IMG/VR virus record: IMGVR_UViG_3300005076_000001
Location: 23,361 to 87,360 of that record
Reading direction: 5' to 3' (one strand)
Length of the DNA stretch: 64,000 nucleotides
DNA from: a virus
Lineage: Duplodnaviria; Heunggongvirae; Uroviricota; Caudoviricetes
In this document: one piece after another, positions 20,002 through 42,604 of the stretch
How the letters are laid out: each line of letters starts with the position of its first letter
Numbering within the stretch: the first letter of the stretch is position 1
Made by a program: the position numbers and the translations under genes
The notes under the pieces: generated by a model
What the model saw: only the letters and a program-made list of their open reading frames with translations
Told to the model about the DNA's origin: nothing
Database searches by the model: none

Positions 20002-21987
20002 ATGGCAAATCTTACACCAACAGCAATTTGGGGTGATGTGTTTCAGATCGAAAAAAACACACCTGTTCTTGGTGGCGCAGGAGGTGTTGCGAACCGGCAG
20101 GCACAAGAACTAGCGAATAGGACACAGTTTCTTTACGAGAATATGGGGGAGGAATTTGCCCCTACCTACGCAGCCCTCCGTGCGTATAACGGCAGTGCCA
20201 CTCGGATGCAGGTTGGGGGCCGCACTAACTATTTTGACGGCGCAGGCGGTATTGTTGTTCGTACTGGTAGCCAGCCTGACAACGACGGCACTGTGTGGGT
20301 AGATGCGCTTGGCCGCAGCTGGGAGCGTCAATTTAGTGGTCCGGTAGATATTCGTTGGTGGGGCGCAAAAGGCGGGAACTATAATTCTTCCCCGGCATTG
20401 CAGGCTGCATACAATTACCTTGTATCTACAGGAAACGGTGGAACCATTCTAGTCCCACCTGCACCTGATGGCTATCGATTGGATACCCCACTTAACTTCA
20501 CTGACGCGTGGGTTCCAATTACTATTAAGGGGATGTCTGGGACAAATATCCCAAGCAATCGACCGAATAACTTCCCCTATGGTTCGCTGTTCTGGGCAAA
20601 CACTGGCGGGGTGTGTATTGATATTGCAGGCCGATGCAATTTTGGTTTGGAAGATATTGTTATCGACACGTTCGATACTACAAAATGCCCTACCCCATCC
20701 AGAATTGGTGTGCTTGGCGCTCGTACTACTACGAGCCAAGATAACCAAAACCACCACTTTAAAAACGTGGCGATTTTCATGAAGTCACAACGCCCCAGCG
20801 CCCCGTCCATCGCGCACTATGCTTATGGTACAGAGCTTGGGTATTACGAGAACTGCTGGTACTTTGCCGACCTTCCGGCAGCGTACTGCTTGGCTAACGT
20901 ACTCGGCGTAACGTCTCCACACCGCACACTTGTGGCAAGCGGCGTTTCCGCTACTGCGAACACCGGTAATGGCTGCCGTTTTGTGACAGTTTCCCCCTCT
21001 GACCCTGCCATCTGGTTTGACGGAACTTACGACAACAGCTTTAAGCAGTCATACTTCTACAATGAAAGTGGCGTATTCACCAATCGCCCCGCGCTGCTTC
21101 TAACTGGCAATAACCACAGTTTGTCGGTTGATACTTTCCAGTGCGAAGAGTTTGCAAACGTCTTTGAGCAGTATGGCTCTTTGTTCAACTCCAAGATTAA
21201 GGGGTTTGTTACAAGCACTAGCTACGCAACAGCAGCTAGCGAAATTGGTCGTTTCACTGGCGCGGCGATTACTGTTGATAACAATTTCGAGATTGAAACA
21301 GGCGGAATTGGCGTAGCTTATGAAGCGTACAAAGGCACCACTGCGGCAAGTTCTGTTTTTGCTAACAACAAGTTCAAGTTAAACCAAACTGGCGGATTTA
21401 ATGTATCTTTTGGTGCTAGCAGTAATGTCGGAAATTTGCACTTTGACAAATGGACGGATGACGTGTCCGTGTTGTTGGGTGGGCTAACCAACTCGACAAA
21501 CATCACTGTAAACGGCAAACAAAAAACAATTGGTGCTGTGAATGTTTCTGAGGGGTTTGTTTTCAAGTATGAAGCCAAGCCAAATAGCACGGCCAACTCA
21601 ATTTTGTCTTTTACCGTTCCAAATGGCGATATTGCATATTGTTATTTTGTTGATTACGTTATTAACTCCAGCGCAAAAGAAGCAGTTAAAACTGGCAGAG
21701 TTCAAGTTTCTGTCGCCAGAAAAACTGACCAAGCCATGGTGCTTACCGCTGAGAAATTGCATGAAAACACACTTCAAGCAGCCGGATCAGAAAGCATAAG
21801 CACTACCTTTTCGGTGTCAGGTATTTTTGATCCTGCAACTGGTACGCAGTATGCTTTTCTAACGTGCAACGCCAACTCTTCTGCTGGTGGAACATCCTAT
21901 ATTCGTGGTAGTGTTAAATCGCTAGGCGCAAGCCTACTAAACTCTCCAATTTACGGAAATCAAAATATAATCATTGGAACGGTATAG
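20002..21987 (+). CDS. tailspike / tail fibre with pectate-lyase-like right-handed beta-helix (probable depolymerase)
   Basis: 661 aa; conserved fibre N-terminal anchor; WWGAKGGNYNSSPALQAAYNYL...GGTILVPP pectate_lyase_3-like; body ~55% GC vs ~42% genome. Confidence 0.6.
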   Translation: MANLTPTAIWGDVFQIEKNTPVLGGAGGVANRQAQELANRTQFLYENMGEEFAPTYAALRAYNGSATRMQVGGRTNYFDGAGGIVVRTGSQPDNDGTVWVDALGRSWERQFSGPVDIRWWGAKGGNYNSSPALQAAYNYLVSTGNGGTILVPPAPDGYRLDTPLNFTDAWVPITIKGMSGTNIPSNRPNNFPYGSLFWANTGGVCIDIAGRCNFGLEDIVIDTFDTTKCPTPSRIGVLGARTTTSQDNQNHHFKNVAIFMKSQRPSAPSIAHYAYGTELGYYENCWYFADLPAAYCLANVLGVTSPHRTLVASGVSATANTGNGCRFVTVSPSDPAIWFDGTYDNSFKQSYFYNESGVFTNRPALLLTGNNHSLSVDTFQCEEFANVFEQYGSLFNSKIKGFVTSTSYATAASEIGRFTGAAITVDNNFEIETGGIGVAYEAYKGTTAASSVFANNKFKLNQTGGFNVSFGASSNVGNLHFDKWTDDVSVLLGGLTNSTNITVNGKQKTIGAVNVSEGFVFKYEAKPNSTANSILSFTVPNGDIAYCYFVDYVINSSAKEAVKTGRVQVSVARKTDQAMVLTAEKLHENTLQAAGSESISTTFSVSGIFDPATGTQYAFLTCNANSSAGGTSYIRGSVKSLGASLLNSPIYGNQNIIIGTV

Positions 21988-23294: not shown

Positions 23295-23483
23295 TTAGGC
23301 AAACAAGCCAAGAATGCTACCGAGAGGGGCAAGAACAATACCTGCTGCTCGTGCAATCTGGAGTGTATCAAACAGAGGCAAGGCTTGAACAAATGCAACG
23401 ATGTTCATAATCCAACCAACAAAAGCCGCAATCCAGAGACCCACCACAACCAAACCAAAACCAGCACCAAACAGTTCTTTCAT
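23295..23483 (-). CDS. small membrane protein (2 TM)
   Basis: 62 aa hydrophobic ORF with RBS. Confidence 0.35.
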   Translation of the reverse strand: MKELFGAGFGLVVVGLWIAAFVGWIMNIVAFVQALPLFDTLQIARAAGIVLAPLGSILGLFA

Positions 23484-37898: not shown

Positions 37899-38051
37899 TT
37901 AGTGAACTGAAAACCAAGATTTCCCAATCTTGCCTTCGCCAGCCAAAGGCATTGCTGTCTTCAGCACCTCACCGGCACGCACAAAACCTTGCTCTGCCAT
38001 CTGGCGGATTTCTTCTGCAATCTCAGGACGACACTCAAAACTATATTCATC
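37899..38051 (-). CDS. DNA polymerase exon 2 (C-terminal 50 aa incl. D-E of motif C)
   Basis: minus-strand reading DEYSFECRPEIAEEIRQMAEQGFVRAGEVLKTAMPLAGEGKIGKSWFSVH* aligns to family A pol C-terminus (T7 ...HDEIQVGCRTEEIAQ...EGKMGPNWAICH). Confidence 0.7.
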   Translation of the reverse strand, partial: DEYSFECRPEIAEEIRQMAEQGFVRAGEVLKTAMPLAGEGKIGKSWFSVH

Positions 38052-38277
38052 CAATCTGTTATGTGGTTCGTTACACCACCTTGCATCCCTGCAAGTGTCG
38101 GACTATATCACCATCTCTCACGAGATGCCCCCCGTTTCGAGAGCACTTGCTCCCTACGCCTTTCGGCTAGTCTCTAGGCTTTCAGCTTTCGCTGTTTAGC
38201 ACGGTAAGTTAGCTGTTCTAGCTTTCTCCGTTTAGAGGGGTTTTCAATACGCATCACTGCGCAAGGCCACAATGTCT
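38052..38277 (-). other. group I self-splicing intron (226 nt, no ORF) in DNA polymerase gene
   Basis: 5' exon ends in U (..UACUACCAU); intron starts AGACAUUGUGG (IGS GUGG pairs CCAU giving U.G); R-like GAGACUAG (plus 38167-38174) and S-like GAUAUAGUCC (plus 38100-38109) P7 elements; terminal G; splicing restores HDE motif. Confidence 0.7.
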
Positions 38278-40995
38278 ATGGTAGTAGATTACGCGTTTAA
38301 CTTCGTAACCTTTATAAATATAGTAAGGTCGCCCCTTATCGTCAATGTACATCTCGCCCAACCATGTATCCATGAAACAACAAGCAAGGTCACAAGCAAT
38401 AGCACCACCAGACTGCATGATGATATTAATCAGGCTGTGTTTACTGCGTGTGTTCAGCAACCGTCCATCAATAGCAGGCAGGTGTTTCTTCTTGCCCTTG
38501 GTTTCCCAATACTTCTCCACATTCTCCTTCAGAGCCTTCAGCGCAGGGTTTGAGTCCCAGAACGCATCGTACAGTCGCTTACCTTCTGCCTCCGGCTTAC
38601 CAAGCGTTGTGGCCAGTTTCTTAGGTGAAGAACCATACAACACTGCGTAGCCACCGCTTTTTGCTTTGTTACGCCAAGGTTTGAAACGCGGGTCATCCTT
38701 GTTAAAGTCCACAGCCTTGTAGTCAAAGCCTTTCGTCTCTTCTGGGAAGAAGCTGCATGCCACTTTACTGTGAACATCACCCTCAAGCAACTCTTTTGCG
38801 TATGCACCGTTGTCGTACTTGTGCGTATTACCTGTAATGGTGATGGTGTTGCCCTGCTTCATGACCCAACTACCATGTTTTGTCTTTGGGCACCACACTT
38901 CCTCTGTGCCATAGTAAGATACTGCCATACGCTGCATGGTCACAAAACCTTTCCTGTTCACAGTGACAGTGTTATGTTTACAGCGTACATATTCTCTTGT
39001 AGCAACCGTCAGCATAGCGTCTGTAGCAAGGTACGTGGCGGTCAGGGCGGCATCAAAGTGCTTGCCTTCATTCTGAGAGAATCTCCACCGACCATCCGGA
39101 TTTCCAGCACAAACCTTGTGTGCATTTTCTCCTTCAAAATGACCATCTGCTACCAAGAAACCCTCCAACCACCTTTGCGTTTCTGCCAGTGATTGTTGAC
39201 AGATTCGTTCAGTCCAGTCAATAGAATACTTACCTTTTGCAAACTGCATGTCACAACCGCTGTAGTCGAGTGTTGGTGCATTTACAATAATGTTACAACA
39301 TGTATTCAAGTCTTTTGTCTCAACAACTCTGTCCTCGTAAGTTCGTTTTTGCGTGTTTCTGTATTTTACAAACCACCTGTGGTTGGCAGTTGCTCGTACA
39401 GAAAAATGCGAGTTGCTAATAGTATATGTTTCGGCATCAGAGAACTTGTGCTTGCTTTCTAGTGGTGTCCACTCTTTCTTTTTAGTCTCTGGGTTATATG
39501 CAAGTATATCTTCACCAATGACAAGCTCATTAAAAAACTTCCAACCTGTACGGGTTAGTGCTTGTGCCGACATTGGGACGCAATAATGGCCTGTAATGCG
39601 TTGTTCCAAACCACTGCTGTCAGAGGCTGCAATAACGAAGCCATCTTCAGCACAAAACAAACGCCTAAACTCTTCACCATACACACTACCGACACGAGGC
39701 ACGTTGCAAATTTCACTATGCGCTTGACGATGTGTGTTGGTAATTTTTGTGCTCTTAGGGTTTAGTCGTCCATCCCAATCAAGACGCCACACACCCAACC
39801 AACCCTCAAGCACAGAGAGACGATTACGCAAAGACAGAAAGCGAACAACGTCTTTAGCCAACTCACCTTCAAGAATTTCAAGATTAGGACACAGCTTGCC
39901 CATCTCCTGTAGCTTCGGTGATGTTTGGATAACATCTTTTGTACGCTCGTCTCTGACAGCTTTGCCTTTTGCGTCCTTCTTAATGTTCCAGAAAGTAGGC
40001 ACCCAACCATGCTCTTCTTGTAGCCAAGTTTTCAGATCGTCTTGGTGTTTAAGTTCCATTGGAAGCATAACGTCAAGAACAAGGTTGCCAACAACTTTAT
40101 ACTGCTTACCGTAAAACTCAACAACACCTGTGCTCACCTCTTTACCGTTATGCTTTGCAATAAAGTTTTGCATATGGTGTGAGTAAGAGCCGTCTTTCTT
40201 GTAAGGGTTTTTAGGAAGTGTGTATTCCTTTTCTTCACCTTTGTTCGGACTGCGTGGTGGCAGCTTAGGCTCAACCTTCTCCTTGAGTTCTTCAATCTCT
40301 TTCTCAAGGCGTTCTTTCACCTCAAGAGCAAGCTTCTTGTCAAAAGCATGACCCGTAAACTCTTGTGCTTTCATGAGGAAGAAGCTTTTCTGCCCCATGC
40401 GATAGCTAGGGTGAACCCACGCATCACCGTACATGTCAACAGCCTTACGCCATAGATCGAAGAACACAACAATGTTTGCGTCAACGTCTTGGTCACAATA
40501 CTCTTCCATCAACGGGTGATAGAAAGAAAACTCATGTCCTTTTGTTTCATTGCCAACCATCACACCAATGTCTACGAGGCGCTGGCGATAGTCGATCTTG
40601 TGACTACCAGCTTTGCGCGACAAAGCATCCAAACTGTGTGACTCAAGATCAGGTTCAAGGTACATGGATAGGTAGAGTGTGTCCCAAAACACCACCTCAA
40701 TACCTGCCAGCGTGTCTTTGCCTTTTTTGCCGACGCGAGGTTGTAGGTCGAAATGCTTCCACAACACCCACACATCATAGCCCAAGATATTGTGGCCTAC
40801 GATCAGCGGTTTATCAAACTGAGACAAAAAGTCTACAACGGCTTGTCTCACTTCCTCTTTTGTCATCTGGAACGGACGAAGGCTCAGTATCTTACTGCCA
40901 TCTGCTGTCTTCCAACGCATATACCACACTTGCTTTGATTGCAAATAGAGGTTGTCTGCCTCAATGTCAAATACAATGATGTTACTCCTGTCCAT
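38278..40995 (-). CDS. DNA polymerase, family A (T7 gp5-like) exon 1, with 3'-5' exo domain and an in-frame intein
   Basis: Exo I NIIVFDIEADN, Exo II HNILGYD; motif A DSSGLEQRI; motif B RNKAKSGGYAVLYG; start ATG 40995 with AGGAGAAAG RBS; ORF reads through into intron to TGA 38254. Confidence 0.85.
38827..39582 (-). mobile_element. intein (252 aa) with LAGLIDADG-type motif inserted after pol motif A
   Basis: Begins Cys right after ...EQRITGHY; block B TANHRWF; LEGFLVADGHFEG; ends ...ITITGN followed by Thr; flanks align contiguously to T7 gp5 (AHFMARFDNGEYAHEILNGDIHTK vs GHY/THKYDNGAYAKELLEGDVHSK). Confidence 0.75.
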
Positions 40996-41024
40996 ACTTT
41001 CTCCTCTGTAAACACTCACAAGAA

Positions 41025-41047
41025 GGGACAGCACTATCGCCTGTCCC
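41025..41047 (-). promoter_or_regulatory. 5' UTR hairpin of DNA polymerase mRNA
   Basis: GGGACAG-9nt-CTGTCCC perfect stem between promoter and RBS. Confidence 0.35.
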
Positions 41048-41062
41048 TTTCAATCAGTAGTC

Positions 41063-41091
41063 ACATTACCACAGAAACGTCTATTTGTCAA
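41063..41091 (-). promoter_or_regulatory. early promoter TTGACAAATAGAC...TCTGTGG-TAATGT (minus strand) for DNA polymerase
   Basis: minus-strand TTGACA (plus 41086-41091) N17 TAATGT (plus 41063-41068). Confidence 0.5.
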
Positions 41092-41095
41092 GCTG

Positions 41096-41338
41096 TCAAA
41101 GGGTTGTCCACCAATCTGGAACATAACCCATTGCCACGTCCTTCTTACCTTCTTGTTTGCAGTTTGGACACTCTTTCAACTTAACGTCACCACTTAGCGA
41201 CCACTGATGGTTACAAATCTTACAACGACAATACGTTTGCATCCACAACTGCTTGATAGATACACTACTGTCTTCCGCTGTGAATTTAATCATGTTTTGT
41301 TTCTCCTTTACGATATTTCTCCGTGAACTCATCAACAC
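41096..41338 (-). CDS. Zn-ribbon protein
   Basis: CRCKICNH...CPNCK paired Cys motifs. Confidence 0.3.
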   Translation of the reverse strand: MLMSSRRNIVKEKQNMIKFTAEDSSVSIKQLWMQTYCRCKICNHQWSLSGDVKLKECPNCKQEGKKDVAMGYVPDWWTTL

Positions 41339-41624
41339 TCTTTTTCAACTCAGACATGTTCCGCTTGTGTGCATGATAGCGACGTTCACTATCCTTCTCT
41401 GCCTCTTCTTTCGTAGCAAACAAGAAACGCTCTTCAATTGTGTCAAAATAATTATCAATGTGCGTAAACACTTTAACAACGTAATGCACATGCTCAGAAA
41501 CATCGTTATCAAAGAATGGCGTTACGACAACAACGTCATAGGCTTCTTGGGGTTTGCTAGGCCACAGCTTCATAGCATCTGCTGTACGCCACAGAACATC
41601 ACCTGCTTTGTATTTCGGGTTCAT
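41286..41624 (-). CDS. hypothetical protein (copy B1 of duplicated cassette)
   Basis: 112 aa; paralog of 41983..42360 (PKYKAGDVLWRT, YIDNYF, ERFLFATKEEAEKDSERRYHAHKR). Confidence 0.4.
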   Translation of the reverse strand: MNPKYKAGDVLWRTADAMKLWPSKPQEAYDVVVVTPFFDNDVSEHVHYVVKVFTHIDNYFDTIEERFLFATKEEAEKDSERRYHAHKRNMSELKKSVDEFTEKYRKGETKHD

Positions 41625-41887
41625 ACTTCATCTCCAATAATACCTTCTGGCAAAAGTTGTTCTGTGAACACCAACACTGTTGGTTCTTCTTCCATAAACG
41701 GAACAGCAACGTGCTCCTCTTCAAACACAGCAAGCTGTTCCATCATGTCCTCTTTCTTCCCAAAAATAGCTTCCCAGCCTTTAGCATATTTCTCTTGACC
41801 AGAAGCTTTTGTCTTAATCAAATCCACTGTGCTGTCATCCAGCAATCCTGTGGTCTCAATATCAAAACACCATGCTCCCTTGTCCAT
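41621..41887 (-). CDS. hypothetical protein (copy A1 of duplicated cassette)
   Basis: start ATG 41887 with AAAGGAGAACAG RBS; paralog of 42344..42604 (DLIKTKASGQEKYAKGWEAIFGKK). Confidence 0.4.
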   Translation of the reverse strand: MDKGAWCFDIETTGLLDDSTVDLIKTKASGQEKYAKGWEAIFGKKEDMMEQLAVFEEEHVAVPFMEEEPTVLVFTEQLLPEGIIGDEV

Positions 41888-41965
41888 CTGTTCTCCTTTT
41901 GTAACATTGTTTGCAACGAGGGGCGTGTGACGAACGCAGGGAGCCACACACCCTTCCAAACAACT

Positions 41966-41993
41966 AATGTAACACAGAATGTCTATTTGTCAA
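41966..41993 (-). promoter_or_regulatory. early promoter TTGACAAATAGAC...TCTGTG-TACATT (minus strand)
   Basis: near-identical to pol promoter; minus-strand TTGACA (plus 41988-41993) N16 TACATT. Confidence 0.45.
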
Positions 41994-42360
41994 GAACGGT
42001 ACGTGCTTGTGCAGCCTTTGCTGCAAGCTCTTGCCCACGCTTCTTAGCTTCAGCCAACACACGCTTGTGTGCATGGTAACGCTTCTCACTATCTTTAACA
42101 GCTTCTTCTGCTGTCTCAAACAGACAACGCTCTGGGACAATGCAGAAATAATTGTCAATGTAAGTGTAGACAGTGCAAACATACCACACTTGGCTGTCAA
42201 CATCATGCTTGTCAAGAACAGCTGTCACTTGAACGTCATACGCTTCTTTAGCAGGCTTCTCTCCAACTTTCCACCAAATGTTTTCTGCGTCGCTTGTACG
42301 CCAAACAATTTTACCAATGTTGTATTTTGGGACAATAACTTTATCATTGTTCATTTTCAA
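41983..42360 (-). CDS. hypothetical protein (copy B2)
   Basis: 125 aa paralog of B1. Confidence 0.4.
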   Translation of the reverse strand: MKMNNDKVIVPKYNIGKIVWRTSDAENIWWKVGEKPAKEAYDVQVTAVLDKHDVDSQVWYVCTVYTYIDNYFCIVPERCLFETAEEAVKDSEKRYHAHKRVLAEAKKRGQELAAKAAQARTVLDK

Positions 42361-42604
42361 TCATCCCTTGTGGCAACAAGCCTTCTACAAACTCTTGCAC
42401 ATACGGAACACACTCAACATCGCCCTCCGGTGTTTCAAGAATAAAACGAGCGTCTTTGGAAGAAATGGTTTGTTCCTCTTGTTTCTTCCCAAAAATACGT
42501 TCCCAATTATCTGCATATGCTTTCTGAGAAGAAGCTTTGCTTTTAATCAAATCCCCTGTTACATCGTTTACAGATGTTTTGAATTTCTCTACATCTTTAG
42601 CCAT
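42344..42604 (-). CDS. hypothetical protein (copy A2)
   Basis: 86 aa paralog of A1. Confidence 0.4.
   Translation of the reverse strand: MAKDVEKFKTSVNDVTGDLIKSKASSQKAYADNWERIFGKKQEEQTISSKDARFILETPEGDVECVPYVQEFVEGLLPQGMIENEQ

Follow-up and report, generated by a model that had tools for sequence, protein, structure and literature searches.

One gene in a 64,000-nucleotide stretch of DNA from a virus of the Caudoviricetes (positions 23,361 to 87,360 of the IMG/VR record IMGVR_UViG_3300005076_000001; this whole stretch is called the window below) raises a simple question. Why does the gene for a T7-like (family A) phage DNA polymerase carry 252 residues directly behind motif A for which T7 has no counterpart? 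The answer put forward here is that the segment is an intein, a reading that is strongly supported, as the segment appears to be one by every criterion that can be computed. It is also probable that this intein is mobile, that it resides in an essential gene, and that it splices and spreads in the manner proposed below. A preliminary description of the window had already placed an intein after motif A. Four lines of evidence now uphold that placement: presence and absence with exact boundaries, conserved splicing residues, a model with the HINT fold and a signature of horizontal transfer.

An in-frame insertion behind motif A

The segment is encoded on the minus strand, where nucleotides 39582 to 38827 are translated as 252 stop-free codons, CVPMSAQALT...QGNTITITGN, running from Cys1 (codon 39582..39580) to Asn252 (codon 38829..38827). 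It lies between ...AASDSSGLEQRITGHY and THKYDNGAYAKELLEGDVHSK, and it contains TANHRWF at residues 65–71 and LEGFLVADGHFEG at residues 139–151 before it ends as ITITGN|T. The insertion point lies 12 residues past the motif A aspartate of the polymerase. Its delimitation as feature 38827..39582 is based on the translation, the family, the fold and the insertion or deletion seen at the DNA level. The coordinates (38827–39582), the length, the flanks and the motifs had all been given exactly in the preliminary description; the initial Cys, the block-B-like TANHRWF and the terminal ITITGN followed by Thr are present and are conserved throughout the family introduced below.

The flanks had been described as contiguous in T7 gp5, and this is what the alignment gives. 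In a phmmer search of the PDB sequences, T7 gp5 (1skr and others) aligned in two pieces: the query up to residue 485 matched T7 up to residue 482 (...IDASGLELRCLAHFM), and the query from residue 740 onwards matched T7 from residue 485 onwards (FDNGEYAHEILNGDIHTK). Since the T7 alignment breaks at 482 and resumes at 485, some 252 residues of the query are left without a T7 counterpart.

Much closer homologues were collected with a 704-residue construct in which the flanks were joined without the intein and the second exon was added (see the last section). This query retrieved 527 proteins at E ≤ 1e-20, and 117 of the best 120 are 600–760 residues long and do not have the segment, which is found in only one of the 120, a 97.6% identical protein of 913 residues from an NCBI assembly (P0004). 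A 92% identical homologue (P0002) reads ...RITGHY|THKYDGG straight across the site, as does an 84% identical one of 704 residues, encoded on an 87.7-kb contig (P0003; ...RITGNY|TFKYDNG). At the nucleotide level, the intein-less contigs L002 and L005 show a gap of exactly 756 nucleotides between ...CAT TAY and ACN CAY AAR. The site could be located in 91 intein-less homologues, and in 90 of these Thr, Cys or Ser stands at the equivalent of position +1. These comparisons confirm, far beyond chance, an in-frame insertion with exact boundaries at a conserved site of the polymerase.

The intein family and its splicing residues

A word-indexed search for homologues with the insertion returned a single fragment (P0001), and the family came to light only with an exhaustive HMMER search. 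A two-sequence profile of 254 positions was run against 1.84 billion cluster representatives, and it recovered 2,227 proteins at E ≤ 1e-3, with 107 at E ≤ 1e-30. Most matches span all 254 positions and are embedded in much larger proteins. The best 150 of the 2,227 include 114 full-length copies, on which the following counts are based. The first residue is Cys, the last Asn and the penultimate Gly in 113 of the 114 in each case; the +1 residue is Ser (51), Cys (32) or Thr (30), together 113 of 114, and the −1 residue is variable. The hosts that were sampled comprise family A polymerases with the element at several distinct sites, a DnaB-like helicase-primase and proteins without a Pfam assignment. 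The clade also contains variants of about 310–340 residues and mini versions of 138–210 residues, all of which begin with Cys and nearly all of which end Thr-Gly-Asn. No further copy of the family is present in the window.

The family profiles match solved inteins, namely Spl DnaX (E 2e-7), AceL NrdHF (E 2e-6) and, more weakly, NrdJ-1, BIL domains and gp41-1. When 28 members were searched with Pfam at E ≤ 0.01, Hint was found in three, LAGLIDADG_3 in three and Intein_splicing in one; the family member P0125 exceeds the gathering score of Intein_splicing. As Pfam-style models miss the family, many of the more than 2,000 metagenome relatives may be unannotated.

Some further members were seen along the way. 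One metagenome polymerase (P0110) has a 324-residue intein (C...VSGN|T) some 23 residues downstream from the insertion point seen in the window polymerase, and several other proteins from the family search seem to hold two inteins. The closest non-identical relative of the intein, with 53% identity, is on a 648-nucleotide contig (L001; ENA contig k141_20665), where it is preceded by ...GRVQGHY|CVPM. Two in-frame stops lie near the contig ends, one nine codons upstream of this junction and the other at a point where the copy in the window reads on, and the sequence is either a decaying copy or the product of errors at contig ends.

Among sequenced phages, a megablast search of the region against 50,697 phage records gave no match, and a tblastn search of the same records found the family in 68. 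Of the 68, 36 are Escherichia phages, with the phi92-like Justusliebigvirus and Phapecoctavirus in their number, and others are phages of Gordonia, Pseudomonas, Campylobacter and Klebsiella, and most of the records label the region as DNA polymerase or hypothetical protein. In Escherichia phage PaulScherrer (MZ501100.1) a 245-residue homologue sits at the same polymerase position, 12 residues past the motif A aspartate (...DSLEAKIESHY|CVPMDAQ...CITITGN|CWRYEQ). Its identity across the full 252 residues is 41% (E 5e-46), and this region is annotated as 'intein' in an 'intein-containing DNA polymerase precursor'. The element in the window therefore belongs to a kind that is already known. The phi92-like inteins share its single-core architecture of 245–252 residues and its Cys1, Trp-Cys and Thr-Gly-Asn residues; they differ from it in their host polymerase, which is only a distant relative, and in having Cys, not Thr, at +1. 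Many records of the phi92-like group contain their copy, while the copy studied here is present in some close relatives and absent from others. A literature search for the phi92 polymerase intein found nothing relevant. The preliminary description mentioned neither these annotated relatives, nor the failure of standard models, nor the residue triplet discussed below.

The phi92-like phages provide what can be said for a different reading of the segment, as a native accessory domain that is kept in the mature polymerase without any protein splicing: many of their records have a homologous segment at the same site, mostly annotated plainly as DNA polymerase. This explanation is extremely unlikely and was rejected. 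Nearly all of the closest homologues do without the segment, including the one that is 92% identical. Moreover, the segment splits a motif A region that is contiguous in T7 gp5, and the module turns up in other, unrelated proteins and at other sites, where its limits are always Cys...Asn|Ser/Cys/Thr. Its predicted HINT fold and an evolutionary history unlike that of its flanks (both treated in the next section) also argue against a native domain.

The splicing residues were assessed by computing conservation in 115 family sequences that are 26–56% identical to the window copy, which agrees with the family consensus at every catalytic position. The N-terminal half of the HINT splicing domain (residues 1–104; 39271..39582, minus strand) was delimited by conservation, by alignment to the Spl DnaX and AceL NrdHF inteins and by the beta strands of the model. 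It contains block A with Cys1 (conservation 0.99) and block B with Thr65 (0.99), His68 (1.0; codon 39381..39379) and, at position B:12, Trp70 (0.99; codon 39375..39373). The block B motif Thr-x-x-His, present as T65-A-N-H68, aligns to block B of both solved inteins, and Trp70 aligns with Met70 (N3:12) of AceL NrdHF (PMC7891396). The C-terminal half (residues 214–252; 38827..38943, minus strand) includes block F with Trp230 (0.97) and Cys231 (0.99; codon 38892..38890), then Thr234 (0.97), and block G with Thr250, Gly251 and Asn252 (0.99 each). It was delimited by conservation, 0.97–0.99 at these positions, and by spacings like those of MchDnaB1 (PMC7664689).

Besides Cys1, then, the element has the complete Trp-Cys-Thr (WCT) triplet of class 3 inteins, with Trp70 at B:12, Cys231 at F:4 and Thr250 at G:5. 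The spacings (His68 to Trp70, +2; Cys231 to Thr250, +19; Thr250 to Asn252, +2) equal those of His65, Trp67, Cys124, Thr143 and Asn145 in the class 3 intein MchDnaB1 (PMC7664689). A search with a trimmed mini-intein profile, intended to bring blocks F and G into register with those of solved class 3 inteins, aligned the N-terminal half only, so that the assignment of F:4 and G:5 rests on the spacing and on the model. The residues would thus make up a hybrid set, with the Cys1 of class 1 and the full triplet of class 3. Two traits define class 3 inteins, this triplet and the lack of a nucleophile at the N-terminus (PMC2807308). Tori et al. (2010) noted three cases with Cys1 among 37 inteins with the triplet (PMC2807308), and such cases stand by definition outside the 1,701 class 3 inteins of Hoffmann et al. 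(PMC7891396). Since Cys1 is invariant, the window intein is not filed as class 3 here, although a step of the class 3 kind is conceivable.

Class 3 inteins such as those of mycobacteriophage Bethlehem DnaB, MchDnaB1 / MsmDnaB1 and AceL NrdHF share the triplet with identical spacing; they are also associated with phages, occur in replication proteins and frequently have Ser or Thr at +1. At position 1, however, they have Ala, Pro or Gly. These likenesses lend some weight to the idea that the intein splices by the class 3 route, in which Cys231 would attack the N-terminal junction directly to give a branched intermediate at block F and Cys1 would be kept for another reason, such as a redox-sensitive Cys1–Cys231 disulfide. 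The signature is 97–99% conserved and spaced as in MchDnaB1 (PMC7664689), and Ser or Thr stands at +1 in 81 of 114 members, as is seen in class 3 inteins (PMC2807308). Nevertheless, this route seems somewhat unlikely, because Cys1 is found not only in all full-length members except one but also in 39 of the 39 longer or shorter relatives with a readable N-terminus, and conservation at that level points to a catalytic role. The class is in addition partly defined by the missing N-terminal nucleophile (PMC2807308, PMC7891396), and neither sequence nor profile searches gave any specific tie of the family to the DnaB-type class 3 clade.

The course of splicing that is preferred starts from Cys1 instead. 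After removal of a group I intron at the RNA level, the 956-residue precursor would be translated, and the intein would fold as a HINT domain with an inserted LAGLIDADG core and then excise itself. Cys1 would form a thioester at the GHY|C junction with the aid of Thr65 and His68 of block B, and the N-extein would be transferred to Thr+1, possibly via the conserved Cys231 of block F. Asn252 would then cyclise without the help of a histidine, which would free the 29-kDa intein, and the exteins would be ligated as ...ITGHY-THKYD... (junction peptide ...RITGHYTHKYDNGAYAK...) to give the 704-residue polymerase with an intact motif A region.

The origin of class 3 is disputed between descent from a class 1 phage intein (PMC3196547) and convergence (PMC7664689), and a natural set of inteins with Cys1 and the triplet and without either assisting histidine bears on this dispute. 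A tentative and rather improbable extension is that the clade, a large and mostly unannotated one among phages with the pattern CVPxD..LT ... WC ... ITGN, splices by a two-cysteine relay, Cys1 to Cys231 to +1, as a pre-adapted state from which class 3 arises by loss of Cys1, and that, separately, the single core acts as a homodimeric homing endonuclease. If so, the clade would be a living intermediate in the disputed transition from class 1 to class 3. A literature search that did not cover Tori & Perler (2011) found no paper describing either a single-core endonuclease or the combination of Cys1 and the triplet for this family. Inteins that are compact, need no assisting histidine and tolerate Ser, Thr or Cys at +1 could be useful in protein engineering as well.

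The single LAGLIDADG core and the spread of the element

An AlphaFold2 model built with a 28-sequence alignment of the family reached a mean predicted local distance difference test score (pLDDT) of 94.5 and a predicted template modelling score of 0.90; a run with the single sequence reached a pLDDT of 34. The best Foldseek matches of the model are inteins or HINT domains throughout, beginning with the endonuclease-bearing inteins TliVMA, PI-SceI, PhoVMA and PI-PfuI and continuing with mini-inteins and hedgehog HINT domains. In the model the HINT domain consists of residues 1–104 and 214–252, and a LAGLIDADG core at residues 123–208 follows a linker (linker and core together, residues ~105–213; 38944..39270, minus strand). 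The core is formed by a helix (132–146), strands 147–150 and 165–171, a second helix (174–186) and strands 191–197 and 202–208. The motif helix, with LEGFLVADG and ending in ...FLVAD146-G147, is closed by an acidic residue, Asp146 (codon 39147..39145, minus strand), as predicted for a LAGLIDADG alpha/beta core. Conservation in this region is 0.94 for Lys118, 0.92 for Asp146, 0.99 for Gly147 and 1.0 for Gln170, which is invariant in the same core.

The term 'LAGLIDADG-type' in the preliminary description is therefore borne out by the modelled fold and by the conserved motif aspartate, and it needs correction in one respect, as there is one core instead of the two found in characterised intein endonucleases. 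In the endonuclease-bearing class 1 inteins PI-SceI, PI-PfuI, PI-PkoII and TliVMA, which are 360–540 residues long and work as monomers, one chain holds both cores (blocks C and E) and G:6 is His; the window intein has one core, Gly at G:6, Cys at F:4 and 252 residues. Single-motif enzymes are known in I-CreI, I-MsoI and I-CeuI, which are free-standing, intron-encoded homodimers that cut pseudo-palindromic sites. Compared with these, the core in the window is smaller (~90–100 residues), has no C-terminal helices, is located inside a HINT domain and faces a target without detectable symmetry. A member of the same clade with two motifs was seen in the metagenome polymerase P0071, where a 336-residue intein occupies the motif B region (...FYA|C...ITGN|CLYGAG).

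Evidence on the history of the element comes from the contig L004, an independent NCBI assembly with the same intein arrangement. Between the window and L004, the exteins are 81% identical in nucleotides, with a third-position identity of 56–59% and a synonymous divergence (dS) of 1.6–2.5. The intein, by contrast, is 96.3% identical, with a third-position identity of 91% and a dS of 0.15. When identity is counted in bins of 30 nucleotides, its rise from about 24/30 to about 29/30 coincides exactly with each of the two boundaries of the intein. The exteins of L004 are moreover nearer to the intein-less L002 (90–92% identical in nucleotides) than to the window. Because the divergence of intein and exteins differs in this way and the L004 exteins are closer to L002, the common ancestor of the two inteins must be much younger than that of the host genes; a young intein whose presence and absence do not follow the host tree bears the mark of homing or of horizontal transfer in another form. 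The comparison indicates a recent horizontal transfer of the intein between diverged polymerase alleles.

For the intein as a whole, the ratio of non-synonymous to synonymous substitution rates (dN/dS) comes to 0.07, and for its nuclease domain to 0.10 (10 synonymous and four non-synonymous changes), values that show purifying selection on the intein and are consistent with selection on both the splicing and the nuclease parts; in the polymerase exteins it is 0.02–0.05, indicating strong purifying selection. These values bear on the suggestion that the intein is dead and the polymerase a pseudogene, or that the insertion is an artefact of assembly. In favour of it, the penultimate and block F histidines are missing and the related fragment L001 contains stops near both ends. 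The suggestion is nonetheless very unlikely, and both variants were rejected: the frame is open through 926 codons, the catalytic positions match the family consensus, dN/dS is low in intein and exteins alike, and the arrangement recurs in the independent assembly L004.

Horizontal movement of the element at this one site, between polymerase alleles that have diverged, is seen as an outcome at the DNA level. The likeliest agent of its spread is proposed to be its own single-core LAGLIDADG nuclease, which would form a homodimer via the LAGLIDADG helix and cut or nick the empty site. Recombinational repair from the occupied allele would follow the cleavage. A compact intein of 250 residues with half a LAGLIDADG endonuclease that nevertheless bears a signature of recent transfer poses the question of how such an element homes.

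Several points weigh against the reading as a functional, mobile intein. Splicing competence, the order of the nucleophiles and an endonuclease activity with dimerisation are what we infer from the observations above, and the main uncertainties are which cysteine starts splicing and whether the half-endonuclease is active. The intein sequence alone had no significant match in Pfam, NCBIfam, PHROGs or the PDB sequences; its best Pfam match was Hint at E 0.18. The fold, for its part, was predicted, and the alignment behind the prediction came from the family itself. Position G:6 is Gly251 instead of a penultimate His, and block F has no conserved His. These two histidines normally assist the cyclisation of Asn, and the penultimate one is common in inteins and not obligatory. 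A class 1 intein with a penultimate Gly, from a mycobacteriophage, splices well and faster than its own Gly-to-His mutant (PMC5050341), and AceL NrdHF likewise does without the G:6 and block F histidines. The model has a single core (alpha-beta-beta-alpha-beta-beta) with one motif helix, where characterised intein endonucleases have two, and on this account the intein would have to dimerise to act as an endonuclease, or may lack this activity. The dN/dS of the nuclease domain rests on 14 substitutions. Finally, a homodimeric nuclease is expected to prefer a palindromic target, and the best symmetry at the empty site was 5–6 of 11 half-site pairs, which 64–95% of shuffled sequences also reached; the test is too weak to exclude a symmetric target. 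A homodimeric nuclease is thus plausible and is unsupported by the target sequence, as the empty site is without palindromic symmetry.

With these points in view, it is quite conceivable, if less probable, that the intein splices while its single core is what is left of a two-core endonuclease and has no function, and that the element is now spread only by ordinary recombination during co-infection or is simply inherited. The window intein aligns to the two-motif intein of P0071 (Pfam LAGLIDADG_3) at residues 1–106 and 212–336 of the latter, as if the first core of about 105 residues had been deleted, and the mini versions in the clade are what decay of an endonuclease would be expected to leave. 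The lack of a palindromic target fits as well, and the literature search found no description of a single-motif LAGLIDADG endonuclease in an intein. A core without function is, on the other hand, hard to reconcile with Asp146 and Gly147, Gln170 and Lys118 being 92–100% conserved across copies that are only 35–55% identical and that occupy many host sites, or with the low dN/dS of the nuclease domain. The dS of the intein is, furthermore, tenfold below that of its flanks, and the step falls exactly at the boundaries, as would be expected if an endonuclease drove homing and the co-conversion tracts were short. The proposal that the core is active in homing is preferred.

The companion intron and the layout of the gene

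The preliminary description had also claimed a group I intron in the same gene, and this claim holds. Rfam RF00028 matches 38287..38079 over the full length of the model with 45.9 bits (E 2e-10), a little below the gathering score of 50. A scan of the window at the Rfam gathering thresholds missed the intron; its sole match was a 19-nucleotide hit to HIV-1_SD (the 'HIV-1 splice donor' hairpin) at 21070–21088 on the minus strand (30.3 bits, E 0.023), which is almost certainly due to chance. The intron measures 226 nucleotides (38052..38277, minus strand), has no internal open reading frame (ORF) and, read from 38277 to 38052, ends in G. Exon 1 ends TAC CAU at 38278 and exon 2 begins GAU GAA at 38051, giving the junctions CAU|AGA...UUG|GAU. 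The intron splits motif C of the polymerase (YYH|DE), and the joined exons, VIYYH|DEYSFECR, match VVYMHDEYSFECR of the intron-less P0003.

In nucleotide sequence the intron is 73% identical to its counterparts in L004 and L002, like the surrounding gene and unlike the intein (96%). It thus looks like an old resident, and the intein like a recent arrival. The heavy load of selfish elements that had been noted for this gene is a fair description, and phage genes occupied by both kinds of element have been documented before (PMC7886860), as have inteins in family A polymerases (PMC4760082, PMC7886860). In crAss-like phages of the Zeta and Delta groups, essential replication or structural genes are likewise hit by group I introns and inteins (PMC7886860). 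The gene studied here, for a T7-like family A polymerase, differs in that it holds a single intron, which is ORF-less and diverges together with its host gene, and a single, recent intein.

The gene is encoded on the minus strand. A single ORF of 926 residues (38254..41034), uninterrupted through its 926 codons, contains the intein. The real start of the polymerase is taken to be the ATG at 40995 (MDRSN...), since the homologues P0002–P0004 begin MD(R/K)SNIIVFDIE. Counted from this ATG, the precursor would have 956 residues, not the 954 given in the preliminary description, and the mature polymerase 704. The N-extein of 471 residues (39583..40995, minus strand), from MDRSN... to ...DSSGLEQRITGHY, comprises the 3'-5' exonuclease domain and the polymerase as far as motif A; it was recognised by a match to PHROG DNA polymerase (E 5e-89), by the T7 gp5 alignment and by the shared start. 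Beyond the intein, the first part of the C-extein extends over 183 residues to the end of exon 1 (38278..38826, minus strand), from THKYDNG..., in which Thr+1 has the codon 38826..38824, to ...VIYYH. Exon 2 (37899..38051, minus strand) supplies the last 50 residues of the polymerase (DEYSFECR...GKSWFSVH), homologous to the C-terminus of P0003, and the stop codon. The gene is correctly annotated as N-extein, intein, C-extein, intron and exon 2, yielding a mature enzyme of 704 residues; read otherwise, the polymerase looks like a truncated protein of 926 residues with an unexplained insert.

Directly upstream of the polymerase, the relatives L004 (1876–2529), L002 (975–1628) and L005 (2253–3014) have an ORF of 217–253 residues with a weak match to the AP2 domain, which may be a free-standing gene of the homing endonuclease kind. 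A tblastn search found no match to this ORF anywhere in the window, where the interval 41035–41340 instead holds an 80-residue zinc-ribbon-like ORF (41096..41338). Also upstream of the polymerase, at 41286–42604 on the minus strand, there is a tandem duplication of a two-gene cassette: the ORF at 41286..41624 is 49% identical to that at 41983..42360, and the ORF at 41621..41959 is 41% identical to that at 42344..42604.

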